From: Escherichia coli
GTDB taxonomy: Bacteria > Pseudomonadota > Gammaproteobacteria > Enterobacterales > Enterobacteriaceae
Assembly: GCF_002854065.1 (NCBI RefSeq)
Contig: NZ_CP024147.1
DNA length: 64,000 bases
Strand: one strand, 5' to 3'
In this document: positions 6,538 through 39,471 of the stretch, one piece after another
Numbering within the stretch: the first letter of the stretch is position 1
How the letters are laid out: each line of letters begins with the position of its first letter
Notes under the pieces: generated by a model
Told to the model about the DNA's origin: nothing
Seen by the model: the letters and a program-made list of their open reading frames with translations, nothing else
The model's database searches: none
Program-made: the position numbers and the translations under genes

Positions 6538-7755
6538 ATGTCCCCCATTGAAAAATCCAGCAAATTAGAGAATGTCTGTTATGACATCCGTGGTCCGGTG
6601 CTGAAAGAAGCAAAACGCCTGGAAGAAGAAGGTAACAAGGTACTGAAACTGAACATCGGCAACCCAGCCCCGTTCGGTTTTGACGCGCCAGATGAAATCC
6701 TCGTTGACGTGATACGCAACCTGCCTACAGCTCAAGGGTATTGCGATTCCAAAGGTCTTTACTCCGCGCGTAAAGCCATCATGCAGCACTACCAGGCTCG
6801 TGGCATGCGTGATGTTACCGTGGAAGATATTTACATCGGCAATGGTGTATCGGAGCTTATCGTTCAGGCAATGCAGGCATTGCTGAACAGCGGGGACGAA
6901 ATGTTGGTTCCTGCACCAGATTACCCACTATGGACCGCGGCGGTTTCGCTTTCCAGCGGTAAAGCGGTGCATTATCTTTGCGATGAATCCTCTGACTGGT
7001 TCCCGGACCTCGATGATATTCGCGCTAAAATTACGCCTCGTACGCGTGGGATCGTTATTATCAACCCAAATAACCCAACCGGCGCGGTATATTCCAAAGA
7101 GCTTTTAATGGAGATTGTGGAGATTGCACGTCAGCATAATCTCATTATCTTCGCCGATGAAATTTATGACAAAATTCTCTACGACGACGCTGAGCATCAC
7201 TCAATTGCGCCGCTGGCACCTGACCTGCTGACCATTACCTTTAATGGACTGTCGAAAACGTACCGCGTTGCAGGCTTCCGTCAGGGGTGGATGGTGTTGA
7301 ACGGGCCGAAAAAACACGCCAAAGGCTACATCGAAGGTCTGGAAATGCTGGCTTCAATGCGCCTGTGTGCTAACGTTCCTGCGCAACACGCCATTCAGAC
7401 CGCGCTGGGTGGTTATCAGAGCATCAGTGAATTTATTACCCCTGGCGGTCGTCTTTATGAGCAGCGTAACCGCGCGTGGGAATTGATCAACGATATTCCG
7501 GGCGTTTCCTGCGTGAAACCTCGTGGTGCGCTGTACATGTTCCCGAAAATCGACGCCAAACGCTTTAACATTCACGACGATCAGAAAATGGTGCTGGATT
7601 TCCTGTTGCAGGAAAAAGTTCTGTTGGTGCAAGGGACGGCATTCAACTGGCCGTGGCCGGACCACTTCCGCATTGTCACGCTACCGCGTGTCGATGATAT
7701 CGAGCTGTCTTTGAGTAAGTTCGCGCGTTTCCTTTCTGGTTATCATCAGCTGTAA
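6538..7755 (+). CDS. alaA: glutamate-pyruvate aminotransferase AlaA
   Basis: 405-aa product, PLP aminotransferase class I (SKTY lysine motif); recognised as AlaA/YfbQ. Confidence 0.92.
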   Translation: MSPIEKSSKLENVCYDIRGPVLKEAKRLEEEGNKVLKLNIGNPAPFGFDAPDEILVDVIRNLPTAQGYCDSKGLYSARKAIMQHYQARGMRDVTVEDIYIGNGVSELIVQAMQALLNSGDEMLVPAPDYPLWTAAVSLSSGKAVHYLCDESSDWFPDLDDIRAKITPRTRGIVIINPNNPTGAVYSKELLMEIVEIARQHNLIIFADEIYDKILYDDAEHHSIAPLAPDLLTITFNGLSKTYRVAGFRQGWMVLNGPKKHAKGYIEGLEMLASMRLCANVPAQHAIQTALGGYQSISEFITPGGRLYEQRNRAWELINDIPGVSCVKPRGALYMFPKIDAKRFNIHDDQKMVLDFLLQEKVLLVQGTAFNWPWPDHFRIVTLPRVDDIELSLSKFARFLSGYHQL

Positions 7756-8496: not shown

Positions 8497-10329
8497 TCAA
8501 AACGGAAACAGCATCGGGATCATCACCACACAAACCGCCATCACGATAATGGTGAACGGTACCCCCAACTTCACAAAGTCACTGAAGCTGTAATTTCCCG
8601 GACCTAAAACCAGTGTGTTAACAGGTGAAGAAACCGGTGTCATAAAGGCGGCGGATGCTGCCATCGCCACGACCATCGCGAATGGATAAGGCGACACCCC
8701 CATCGTTTTGGCAGCAGCCAGCGCAATCGGAGCCATCAACACCGCCGTCGCGGTATTAGAGATAAATAGCCCAATAACCGCCGACAAGACAAACAAACAA
8801 CCCAGCATCATATGTGGCCCGTAACCACCGCCAATGTCCATCAGCCCTTTCACCGCCAGCGCGACACCTCCCGTTTTCTGTAATGCCACAGCAAACGGCA
8901 TCATCCCAACGATCAAAATAATGCTCGGCCAGTGAATGGATTTATAGGCGCTTTCAGCATCTATACAGCGGAATTTCCCCATCAGCAGGCAGGCGATGAT
9001 AGCGGCAACAGGATTAGGAATTTCATCTGTCAGCATTAACGCCACCATTAGCACCAGACAGAAAATGGCATGGGGTGCCTGGCTGTGCGCGGGCGATGCT
9101 TCACTCACCTCTTCCGGTAAGTTCAGCGCTACGAAGTCGCGGCCCTGTTTGGCCAGCATACCGATCAGTTTCCAGTTACCCACAACCAGGATGATATCGC
9201 CCAGCAGCAGAGGCTCATCCGCCAGCGAACCTTCCAGCGCCACGCCATTGCGCTTTAGCCCCACCACATTCAGTCCGTAGCGGGTACGAAAACCAATTTC
9301 GCGCACCGATTTACCAATAAGTTCTGACTCAGGAATTAATGAAATCTCTGCCATGCCCACATCAAGGGCCTGGTCAGAAAAATACTCGCCGCGCAGTACC
9401 ATCGGCTCCAGCAATTGCTCACTACAAAATTGCCGGAGATCGACATCAGCCGCAGACATATCAATAAGCAAAACGTCACGCGCGCGAAATTCAGAAACCC
9501 CATTAACGTTCACGATAACGCGACGAAAACGCCGCCAGCGTTCAACACCGATGACGTTAGCGCCATAACGCTCACGTAATTTGAGATCGTCCAGCCGTTG
9601 ACCAATCATTGGCGATCCGGGGCGGATAGCCAGACGTCGCGCACGCCCGGTCAGTCGATATTCACGGATAAGATCGCGAAAGGTTCGACGCGTCCAGCCT
9701 TCGCGCTGCGGGGTCTGGGTATCCCCTTTCAGCATGAAACGCATCACTAACATATACAAAATACCCAGCACCAGCACGACCAGGCCAATAGGTGTTACGC
9801 TAAAGAAACTGAAGCCGTGATAGCCTTCACGCAGCAATTCACTGTTGACTACCAGGTTCGGCGGCGTCGCCACCAGCGTCATCATGCCGCTAATCAGCCC
9901 GGCAAAACTTAACGGCATCATCAGACGTGACGGCGACGTTTGCATACGCATGGCAACGCTTAACACCACGGGAATAAAGATAGCGACAACGCCGGTTGAA
10001 CTCATAAACGCGCCAAGCCCCGCGACGGTCAGCATCAACAAAACCAACATTTTGATTTCACTGTTGCCCGCAACTTTGACCAGCCATGTTCCCATTACGG
10101 TGGCAACACCGGTACGGACCAAACCATCGCCAATAATAAACAAGGCGGCAATCAGGACAACGTTAGGATCAGAAAAGCCGGAAAATACTTCTGGGACTGT
10201 CAGCGTTCCGCTTAATGCAAACGCGACAATAACAAACAAAGCGACCGCATCCATACGCACTCTGCCCGTCGCAAACAAGACGATGGCAACGGCCAGTAAT
10301 GAAAGAACCCAAATCAATTCACCGTTCAC
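8497..10329 (-). CDS. yfbS: putative permease YfbS (SLC13/DASS-like with two TrkA-C domains)
   Basis: 610-aa polytopic product with central soluble region; recognised as YfbS. Confidence 0.88.
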
Positions 10330-24982: not shown

Positions 24983-25765
24983 TTAACCGCCATAAACATC
25001 AAAATCGAAGTACTTTTTCGCTAATTTCTCGTAAGTACCGTCAGCGCGCATTTCTGCAAAGGCTTTGTTCAGTGCCTCGCGCAGTTCGTTATCTTCTTTA
25101 CGCAGGCCCATGCCGGTCCCTACGCCAAACAGTTTTTCATCTTTAACAGACGGGCCACCGAATTTGTAATCTTTACCGACAGGTTGTTTGAGGAAACCTT
25201 CGCTGGCAGCGACCTCATCCTGGAACGCGGCATCAATACGTCCGGCAGTCAGGTCAGAATAAATGTTGTCCTGCCCCTGATACGAGACGATTTCAATGCC
25301 TTTTGGTGCCCAATGTTCATTACCGAACGTCTCCTGGGTGGTGCCCTGCAATACGCCTACCCGTTTGCCTTTCAGCGACTCGACTGTCGGCTGAATGTCA
25401 GAATTTTTCGCCACCACCAAACGAGAATCGGCAGCGTACAGTTTGTCGGTGAAGGCTATTTCTTGCTGACGTTTTTCCGTAATGGAAAGCGATGACATGA
25501 TGGCGTCAATCTTCTTCGCTTTTAAGGACGGGATTAACGCATCCAGCGGATTTTCGACAAACGTACATTGCGTATTGATGCGTTTGCATAATTCCTTTGC
25601 CAGATCGATATCGAAGCCAACCAGTTCGCCTTGTGAATTTTTTGATTCAAATGGCGCATAGGTCGGGTCGGTACCGATGCGGATGTTTTGCGGAATCGCA
25701 GCAAATGCCGCAGTTGCGCTGGAGAAGGCCAGAACCAGAGAGAGCGATAGCACCAGTTTTTTCAT
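24983..25765 (-). CDS. hisJ: histidine-binding periplasmic protein HisJ
   Basis: 260-aa product with signal peptide; recognised as HisJ. Confidence 0.93.
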
Positions 25766-25985
25766 AATGTCCTCAACTGACAGTCTTTTTATAGGGAATA
25801 TTTACAGGTTTGTTACACTTATCGTGCCATAAAATTGACCATCAAGGCAAAATATCCCGCCCCGTTAGACGTATTATTTTTCATTAAAAATGCTTAAGTA
25901 TGCATTTCAATGCACCACGATAGTGCAACAAACCTGGCGTGCACCATGATGATCATTCCATCAGGTACAGCTTCCCAGCGACGTA

Positions 25986-26768
25986 TCAGTCACCGTAGAC
26001 ATTAAAGTCAAAATACTTTTTCGCCATCTTGTCGTAGGTGCCGTCCTGACGCAGCTCGCCAAGCGCCTTATTGAAGGCAGCCGTCAGTTCAGCATCATCT
26101 TTACGTAGCCCTACACCGGTGCCATCACCGAAGTATTTTTTGTCTTTCACTGATGAGCCAGCAAAGGCGAAGTCTTTACCAGCAGGTTGCTTGAGGAATC
26201 CTTCGCTGGCGGCGACTTCATCCTGTAATGCCGCATCCAGACGTCCTGCAGCCAGATCGGAATAGACCAAATCCTGGTTGGCATAGGCCACCACATCCAC
26301 ACCTTTGCTACGCCAGGTCTCGTTAGCGTAAGCTTCCTGGGTTGATCCCTGCAGCACACCAACATGTTTACCTTTCAGTGAATCCAGCGTTGGCTGAATC
26401 GGCGAACCTTTGGCGGCAATCAAACGAGAATCTGCGGCGTACAACTTGTCGGAGAAAGCAATCTCCTGCTGACGTTTATCGGTAATGGAGAGCGACGAAA
26501 TAATGGCGTCGATTTTTTTCGCTTTCAGTGAGGGGATCAGCGCGTCAAAGTCACTGGCAACCCAGGTACATTTCACCTGCATCCGTTTGCACATCTCGTT
26601 ACCGAGATCGATATCAAAGCCAACAAAATCACCTTTAGCATCTTTCGACGAGAACGGCGCATAGGTGGTATCGGTTCCGATACGTACCGTCTCCGGTAGC
26701 GCCGCATAGCTGGAAGCCGCTGCGGAGAGACCGACTAACAAAGACAGAGCGAGAATCGACTTCTTCAT
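25986..26768 (-). CDS. argT: lysine/arginine/ornithine-binding periplasmic protein ArgT
   Basis: 260-aa paralogue of HisJ; recognised as ArgT. Confidence 0.93.
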
Positions 26769-26843
26769 ACATAACCCTCAAGTGAAAATGGCTTTTTTAT
26801 GTTGTGTATTGTGTTGTGTGTTGTGTGTTTGCAGGCTCTTTCA

Positions 26844-26859
26844 TGCAGGTCTTATGCCA
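26844..26859 (-). promoter_or_regulatory. candidate sigma-54 (-24/-12) promoter element for argT
   Basis: Gene-strand sequence TGGCATAAGACCTGCA has GG and GC at the correct -24/-12 spacing, about 75 bp upstream of argT ATG; argT is known to be nitrogen-regulated. Confidence 0.5.
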
Positions 26860-27040
26860 TCTTGACGACAACAGTAACATTCAACGTTAAATGTGTTAAT
26901 AAGACGTTGCATTATTGTCCTGAAGTTGAAGATAGCAGGTATAGCGGTTGAATCGCAGCGTTTCGATTGAATGGCAGAAACAAAATGTCGAGGATTTGAT
27001 CGCGGTTGCAAAATTGCCCTGAAACAGGGCAACAGCGGAG

Positions 27041-27610
27041 TTATGCGCCCTGCCAGCGGGCAAAGAGATCTTCAGGAAGGGTTATTGCAAACTGGTCAAG
27101 AACACGATTAACCGTCTGATTTATCACATCATCAAGGGATTGCGGGCGATGATAAAACGCCGGAACGGGAGGCATAATCACCGCACCGATTTCTGCTGCC
27201 TGAGTCATTAAACGCAGATGACCTAAGTGCAATGGTGTTTCACGCACGCAGAGCACCAACGGGCGACGCTCTTTCAGCACCACATCTGCCGCACGGGTCA
27301 GTAAGCCATCAGTATAGCTATGGACAATGCCGGACAGGGTTTTGATTGAACAGGGTAAAATCACCATCCCCAGTGTCTGGAAAGAACCGGAAGAGATGCT
27401 GGCGGCAATATCGCGCGCATCATGCGTGACATCAGCTAATGCCTGCACTTCGCGCAGGGAAAAATCCGTTTCGAGGGATAAGGTCTGGCGCGCCGCCTGG
27501 CTCATCACCAGATGCGTTTCGATATCTGTGACATCGCGCAGAACCTGTAATAAACGCACGCCATAAATCGCGCCGCTGGCACCGCTGATGCCTACAATGA
27601 GTCGTTTCAT
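27041..27610 (-). CDS. ubiX: flavin prenyltransferase UbiX
   Basis: 189-aa product recognised as UbiX. Confidence 0.93.
   Translation of the reverse strand: MKRLIVGISGASGAIYGVRLLQVLRDVTDIETHLVMSQAARQTLSLETDFSLREVQALADVTHDARDIAASISSGSFQTLGMVILPCSIKTLSGIVHSYTDGLLTRAADVVLKERRPLVLCVRETPLHLGHLRLMTQAAEIGAVIMPPVPAFYHRPQSLDDVINQTVNRVLDQFAITLPEDLFARWQGA

Positions 27611-37297: not shown

Positions 37298-39471
<2,174 letters not shown>

Follow-up and report, generated by a model that had tools for sequence, protein, structure and literature searches.

The closest described counterpart of the locus studied here is argTp (argTr in Salmonella), a promoter of the Ntr regulon. In Salmonella, argT is among the four operons with experimentally established sigma-54 dependence, NtrC being the activator, and, in the presence of an activator that is constitutively active, its expression is 3.5-fold higher in the wild type than in an rpoN deletion (PMC3844500). 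For E. coli K-12, a sigma-54 ChIP-seq peak (OS22, FAT 12) was found upstream of argT (PMC4591121), and the spacer between ubiX and argT is an RpoN gSELEX site (PMC8743547). When PMC4591121 appeared, the E. coli promoter had the status 'predicted', not confirmed, in EcoCyc. Sigma-54 sites that lie inside the footprint of a sigma-70 promoter are known from glmY/glmZ and from the class I and class II sites of Schaefer et al. 2015, and argT shares this arrangement.

At the level of the mRNA, argT belongs to the targets of the small RNA GcvB. The accounts of Sharma 2007 given in PMC2639303 and PMC9299463 name it as a verified target of the R1 seed in Salmonella; for E. coli, PMC9299463 marks its repression as 'conserved', not 'verified', and counts argT as one of GcvB's strongest partners, very highly supported by RIL-seq, CLASH and MAPS. 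GcvB binds argT upstream of its ribosome-binding site (PMC2639303), TRIC-seq data localise the contact in E. coli, and PMC3318445 lists argT only as a GcvB target. The R1 targets dppA, oppA, gltI, livJ, livK and argT have the same C/A-rich, unstructured stretch upstream of the Shine-Dalgarno sequence. In yifK and dppA, multiple ACA motifs lie within the GcvB target and upstream of the Shine-Dalgarno sequence (Yang, Figueroa-Bossi and Bossi 2014); these motifs enhance translation, and GcvB silences such enhancers (PMC3879156).

The window, i.e. the whole stretch of 64,000 nucleotides analysed here, is part of an E. coli chromosome. Over the 1 kb around the argT promoter, its identity is 100% to strain CUWW06 and 97.8% to K-12. 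On the minus strand, ubiX (27610..27041) is followed by argT (26768..25986), hisJ, hisQ and hisM; gene, orientation and upstream neighbour are those of argTp. The product matches the NCBIfam equivalog NF011586 with 583 bits (cutoff 440), which identifies it as ArgT. Upstream of the argT ATG at 26768, the spacer to ubiX measures 272 bp, and its gene strand contains AAGATGGCATAAGACCTGCATGAAAGAGCCTGCAAACACACAACACACAACACAATACACAACATAAAAAAGCCATTTTCACTTGAGGGTTATGTATG. An earlier note, made from the bare sequence, had proposed for this spacer a sigma-54 promoter of argT adjoining a TG-rich, microsatellite-like tract, and a CA-rich leader of the kind bound by GcvB. The features on which our analysis draws are listed here.

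25986..26768, minus strand: argT coding sequence, lysine/arginine/ornithine-binding periplasmic protein of 260 aa (open reading frame list and RefSeq annotation of matching genomes)
26775..26779, minus strand: Shine-Dalgarno sequence GAGGG, 6 nt before the argT ATG, as read from the sequence
26801..26832, minus strand: C/A-rich imperfect repeat GCAAACACACAACACACAACACAATACACAAC with which the leader begins, target of GcvB R1 and element with ACA motifs
26814..26827, minus strand: two tandem CACACAA units (the +7 allele), from alignment with K-12 and three other strains
26833..26835, minus strand: predicted start of the sigma-54 transcript, from which the 5' UTR would measure about 65 nt here and 58 nt in K-12
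26844..26860, minus strand: sigma-54 -24/-12 element ATGGCATAAGACCTGCA, with GG at 26858-57 and GC at 26847-46
26865..26899, minus strand: putative sigma-70 promoter, with -35 TTAACA at 26899..26894, a 17-nt spacer, TG-n-TACTGT at 26879..26871 and a start near 26865
27015..27031, no strand assigned: dyad TGCCCTGTTTCAGGGCA and then AATTTTG, just past the ubiX stop; it resembles a terminator hairpin and, weakly, an NtrC dyad
25911..25927, no strand assigned: NtrC-type palindrome TGCACTATCGTGGTGCA between argT and hisJ, with no other match near argT at up to three mismatches

The Shine-Dalgarno region is kept across genera, its central GG being invariant in an alignment of 22 genera. Between 25600 and 27200, Rfam covariance models gave no match on either strand at E-values up to 1.

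Within the -24/-12 element, TGGCATAAGACCTGCA at 26859..26844 (minus strand) departs from the strict sigma-54 consensus at three positions and retains every invariant core base; the distance from GG to GC is the canonical 10 bp, exactly as the earlier note had read it. The degenerate pattern TGGCAYN5YTGCW occurs twice in the 64 kb, against an expectation of 0.44. For a quantitative estimate, a weight matrix was built from Table 1 of PMC4591121, using its intergenic-sense ChIP-seq sites with argT itself left out (41 sites). With 14.8 bits, the argT element ranks first among all 127,968 positions and falls at the 32nd percentile of the 41 real sites. The same score was, however, reached in 54 of 100 shuffled windows, so that the motif alone does not stand beyond chance. 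The case for a sigma-54 promoter rests instead on position, conservation and published binding. Among the other high-scoring matches in the window are 54019-54035 (minus strand), 37544-37560 (plus strand) and 7213-7229 (plus strand), with 14.25, 13.4 and 12.5 bits; none of these three motifs occurs exactly in the main text or tables of PMC4591121.

As to position, the element is intergenic, lies on the argT strand and predicts a start 65 nt before the ATG. As to conservation, we sampled 80 species of Enterobacteriaceae, using ArgT as an unbiased anchor to fetch the upstream regions. TGGC-N8-TGC[AT] was present in all 80 of them, at 66-105 nt upstream of the argT ATG; in the 22-genus alignment, TGGCA..A..TGCA is invariant at a mean column identity of 60%. 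As to binding, ATGGCATAAGACCTGCA is identical to the K-12 sequence of peak OS22, and the 18-mer, with two further bases, is identical to a sigma-54 ChIP-chip site of Salmonella LT2 (PMC3844500). The window thus carries the 17-mer of K-12 and the 18-mer of LT2, and the proposal of a sigma-54 promoter for argT is borne out by a motif bound in two species and kept in every species sampled. Binding itself, as well as the dependence on rpoN and NtrC, is carried over from this identical or homologous sequence and would be expected to hold for the window strain.

The predicted start follows from the rule of PMC4591121, which places it 19 bp downstream of the motif centre. Compared with argTp of K-12, the promoter itself is unchanged and its distance to the ATG is 7 nt longer, because the window carries an extra repeat unit: the K-12 distance of 58 nt (PMC4591121) equals 65 minus the 7 additional bases. 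If the start is placed correctly, the tract at 26832..26801 does lie downstream of the promoter, as the earlier note had it, but it is more than a neighbour: it makes up the first ~33 nt or so of the predicted sigma-54 transcript.

The arrangement upstream of this start is more complex than the earlier note had described, since it did not mention a sigma-70 promoter. According to the supplement of PMC4551910, the argT sigma-54 motif occupies +6..+22 of a sigma-70 start site (class II), which would put that start near 26865 in the window. A plausible assignment of the hexamers, made by us from the sequence, is TTAACA and TACTGT. The -35 hexamer coincides with a TTAAC block that is invariant in the 22-genus alignment; the -10 region is not conserved. 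A strict and simple sigma-70 scan found no promoter in 25700..27100. Two further blocks of the spacer are nearly invariant across the 22 genera, CGATCAAATCC at 26992-27002 and TGCTATCTT at 26929-26937 (minus strand), and the latter resembles an extended -10. As in the class I and class II dual promoters, sigma-54 lowers the sigma-70 output at argT; unlike fully overlapping dual promoters, argT has its sigma-54 site downstream of the sigma-70 start.

This geometry raises the question of whether the -24/-12 element activates argT at all, or mainly parks an inactive sigma-54 polymerase that obstructs the sigma-70 promoter in the manner of a repressor. The class II placement at +6..+22 speaks for such a roadblock; argT expression with rpoN amounts to 23% of that without it (rpoN/vector), sigma-54 reduces sigma-70 initiation in vitro, and the effect of sigma-54 on argT in rich medium is a decrease and not an increase in expression (all PMC4551910). 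In addition, argT mRNA is abundant in LB interactome data, a condition in which NtrC is inactive. On the other hand, the 3.5-fold higher expression of Salmonella argT in the wild type than in the rpoN deletion, seen with the constitutively active activator (PMC3844500), speaks for activation, and NtrC ChIP and expression data put argT in the Ntr regulon (PMC4066584). We regard a role that is chiefly obstructive as possible but somewhat unlikely, and the two roles are not mutually exclusive. In our reading, the sigma-54 element is an activating promoter, and both promoters feed the same GcvB-controlled leader.

What is more challenging is the location of the NtrC enhancer. In nitrogen-starved E. 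coli, NtrC ChIP-seq shows a weak, 5.4-fold peak at argT (PMC4066584). With the consensus TGCACC(W)4TGGTGCA taken from PMC4987338 and up to three mismatches allowed, no site is found between ubiX and argT. Near argT, the consensus is matched by a single sequence, the palindrome TGCACTATCGTGGTGCA; it occupies 25911..25927 and thus lies about 920 bp downstream of the argT sigma-54 element. According to our conversion of coordinates, it coincides with the strong 'hisJQMP' NtrC ChIP peak of PMC4066584. It is a candidate remote enhancer, mainly for hisJ; a role at the argT promoter is speculative. Upstream of hisJ itself (ATG 25765), the weight matrix finds a sigma-54-like sequence, ATGGCACGATAAGTGTA at 25814-25830 (minus strand, rank 4 of 127,968), which has GT, not GC, at -12; the near-consensus NtrC palindrome lies ~90 bp further upstream. 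Yet hisJ does not appear in the main sigma-54 ChIP-seq tables of PMC4591121.

With a relaxed NtrC-like dyad pattern, five matches were obtained against 2.24 expected, which is not significant. The dyad at 27015..27031 is kept across genera and, judged by eye in the 22-genus alignment with the pairs uncounted, appears to change on both arms. The terminator scan did not call it, passing over it because it is followed by only four T. Klebsiella, Enterobacter and Yokenella have a much better dyad of the NtrC type ~32 bp upstream of the counterpart of 27015..27031; the E. coli counterpart of this better dyad is degenerate and overlaps the ubiX stop codon.

We now turn to the leader. Read on the gene strand, the TG-rich tract of the plus strand is a C/A-rich GcvB R1 target, and the G/U-rich R1 region of K-12 GcvB, GUGAUGUUGUGUUGUUGUGUUUGC, closely resembles the plus-strand tract of the window. 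Pairing was assessed by scanning every 40-nt segment of the window, on both strands, against R1 alone (31,980 segments); duplex energies of the full-length leader and GcvB, at about -67 kcal/mol, were discarded as over-extended, intramolecular structure being ignored in them. With -35.4 kcal/mol, the argT leader ranks second among the 31,980 segments (mean -15.5, sd 4.25). The best match, with -36.7 kcal/mol, is 10209..10248 (plus strand), which runs antisense inside a minus-strand open reading frame of 610 aa (8497..10329); we set it aside as probably fortuitous.

In K-12, the leader offers a contiguous R1 site of 26 nt with -36.1 kcal/mol; on the predicted sigma-54 transcript, this site begins at nt 2. 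The full K-12 leader pairs with R1 over nt 1-27 with -36.8 kcal/mol. The tract is predicted to be accessible, with a mean probability of being unpaired of 0.80, compared with 0.53 in the remaining UTR. Across the 80 species, pairing of the leaders with R1 averages -30.8 kcal/mol, versus -19.0 kcal/mol for 3,034 controls from the same locus, and 67 of the 80 leaders lie beyond the first percentile of the controls, despite a tract length that varies between genera. The gene gcvB lies outside the window; of the 5,426 complete E. coli genomes, 5,425 have it, and in 5,389 its identity is 99% or more. Like the other R1 targets, the argT leader shows long complementarity to the G/U-rich R1. The site verified for argT of Salmonella is its homologue, and on this ground the interaction would be expected in the window strain. 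The rank in the R1 scan, the complementarity across 80 species and the published data from Salmonella and E. coli together support the leader as a GcvB-type target.

Could both elements be no more than chance matches without function? About half of the shuffled windows reach the sigma-54 score, and the antisense intragenic site at 10209..10248 matches R1 equally well. Against this stand the correct position and orientation, the published binding on identical sequence, and the invariance in 80 species amid a spacer that otherwise diverges. The conservation, together with the published ChIP and interactome data, rules the reading out, and we assign it a practically negligible probability.

A more serious alternative concerns the primary task of the tract. 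Its ACA motifs, of which different alleles hold between 8 and 16, and its predicted single-stranded state would suit an unstructured landing pad for the ribosome, i.e. a translational enhancer that acts independently of GcvB and for which the pairing is secondary; such motifs drive translation of yifK and dppA (PMC3879156), and GcvB binds argT upstream of its ribosome-binding site, where simple occlusion does not explain repression. The argT tract differs from yifK and dppA in lying 20-50 nt upstream of the Shine-Dalgarno sequence, and enhancer activity at argT would hold by analogy. Against the alternative, GcvB works precisely by silencing such enhancers (PMC3879156), which couples the one function to the other; chimeras of GcvB and argT are very abundant in vivo; and it is specifically the complementarity to R1, beyond C/A content, that is kept in the 80 species. 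A mainly GcvB-independent enhancer is an unlikely description of the tract.

The repeat structure of this target is short and imperfect. Tandem Repeats Finder reports a period of 7 with 4.5 copies, 88% matches and a score of 33, below the usual threshold of 50, and a period of 12 with a score of 47. Two CACACAA units stand in tandem in the window, at 26827..26821 and 26820..26814, in place of the single unit of K-12 and of over 99.8% of E. coli genomes. Carriers of this +7 allele were counted with a query whose 5' flank is so short that a 7-nt gap would cost more than it gains, which leaves full-length alleles as the only ones to align from end to end. Among 5,425 complete E. coli genomes, exactly three carry the allele: CUWW06 (the window strain), MEI003 and GN06156. 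A 1-kb query returned 10 genomes at 99% identity or above, which mostly represent the haplotype of the window without the extra unit. One of the genomes without it, A16, is identical to the window at all variable sites but one from 27335 to 26232, i.e. for ~500-600 bp on each side. MEI003, by contrast, carries the unit and differs from the window by 63 mismatches over 2 kb. The nearest SNPs that discriminate the two +7 haplotypes are at 26864 and 26673. The presence of the allele on two flanking haplotypes implies that the duplication arose at least twice, or that it moved on a conversion tract of less than 190 bp.

The predicted effects of the additional unit are modest. Compared with K-12, the UTR would measure 65 instead of 58 nt and contain 11 instead of 8 ACA motifs; the best contiguous R1 site of the +7 allele reaches -32.1 kcal/mol, versus -36.1 kcal/mol in K-12, and -35.2 kcal/mol when a 6-nt bulge is allowed. 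A literature search for tandem duplications in GcvB target sites found nothing.

Other changes of the tract were observed as well. NT1N31 and NT1N34 carry a 37-nt tandem copy of the whole tract, with GCCTGCAAACACACAACACAATACACAACATAAAAAA present twice, and hence two complete R1 sites and 16 ACA motifs. Strain E5 has a 12-nt duplication, AACACACAACAC, and in MB06172 and SW07099 a 1-nt deletion turns GCAAAC into GCAAC. The alignment of B27 (NZ_AP027424.1) ends upstream of the sigma-54 element, and that of mip270_04 (NZ_CM132654.1) breaks off within the C/A tract. This suggests that the argT upstream region of these two genomes has an insertion or deletion or is rearranged. Beyond E. coli, the tract of 'Enterobacter pulveris' is 20 nt longer than that of Franconibacter helveticus, corresponding to four CAACA units; in Trabulsiella it is expanded; and in E. 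albertii it is 12 nt shorter, with a weaker predicted R1 pairing of -27.5 kcal/mol. These variants in unit number in other genomes indicate that the tract is a real, slippage-prone repeat. It is not hypervariable: its length differs in about 10 of the 5,425 complete E. coli genomes. The description of the tract as microsatellite-like consequently stands for an imperfect repeat with rare length variants and fails for a hypervariable microsatellite.

The same counts bear on whether the repeat might act as a contingency locus, a hypermutable microsatellite that switches argT through frequent changes of unit number. Unit-number variants of +7, +12, +37 and -1 do occur, the +7 variant is found on two haplotypes, and tract length differs between genera. 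But with so few genomes differing in length, and the +7 variant in exactly three of them, recurrence is real yet rare; the repeat is short and imperfect (score 33); and every variant keeps the promoter, the Shine-Dalgarno sequence and at least one R1 site, so that no on/off switch is apparent. Allele frequencies largely rule this model out, and it has a very slight chance of being correct. A milder proposal takes the rare duplications (three genomes and two haplotypes for +7, one genome for +12, two for +37) as regulatory alleles that retune ArgT, as opposed to neutral slippage: the extra ACA motifs may raise translation, or control by GcvB may be changed or doubled. We consider this improbable as well, though less so than switching.

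Taken together, argT is very probably controlled by a sigma-54/NtrC promoter, followed by a GcvB-controlled C/A-rich leader, and by an additional sigma-70 promoter upstream. According to this model, sigma-54 polymerase would sit at 26860..26844 in a closed complex until, when nitrogen is limiting, phosphorylated NtrC activates it, and transcription would start near 26833. The resulting leader of ~65 nt would open with the unstructured C/A tract at 26832..26801 and its 11 ACA motifs, which may stimulate translation initiation at the downstream Shine-Dalgarno sequence. The same tract would pair with the G/U-rich R1 of the Hfq-dependent GcvB, which would repress the synthesis of ArgT when amino acids are plentiful. 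In rich medium, the putative sigma-70 promoter, with its start ~30 nt further upstream, would feed the same leader and be partly blocked by the resting sigma-54 complex. The repeat structure probably reflects the repetitive C/A composition needed to match R1 of GcvB; such a repeat would occasionally slip in replication, and the one extra CACACAA of the window strain may be a product of this.

The promoter and the GcvB site are both already known, being established parts of the Ntr and GcvB regulons; the extra 7-base unit in the GcvB site is the sole new detail, and a small one. As a discovery the locus is thus of little importance, and its value is that of a positive control, in that two real regulatory elements were picked out of the bare sequence by a reader who had no tools. 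For the biology of E. coli, the rare recurrent duplications in the argT GcvB site provide natural alleles with which the number of sites and of ACA motifs can be related to control by the small RNA and to translation. If the duplications do retune ArgT, the target sites of small RNAs would be a natural substrate for repeat-mediated tuning of gene expression.
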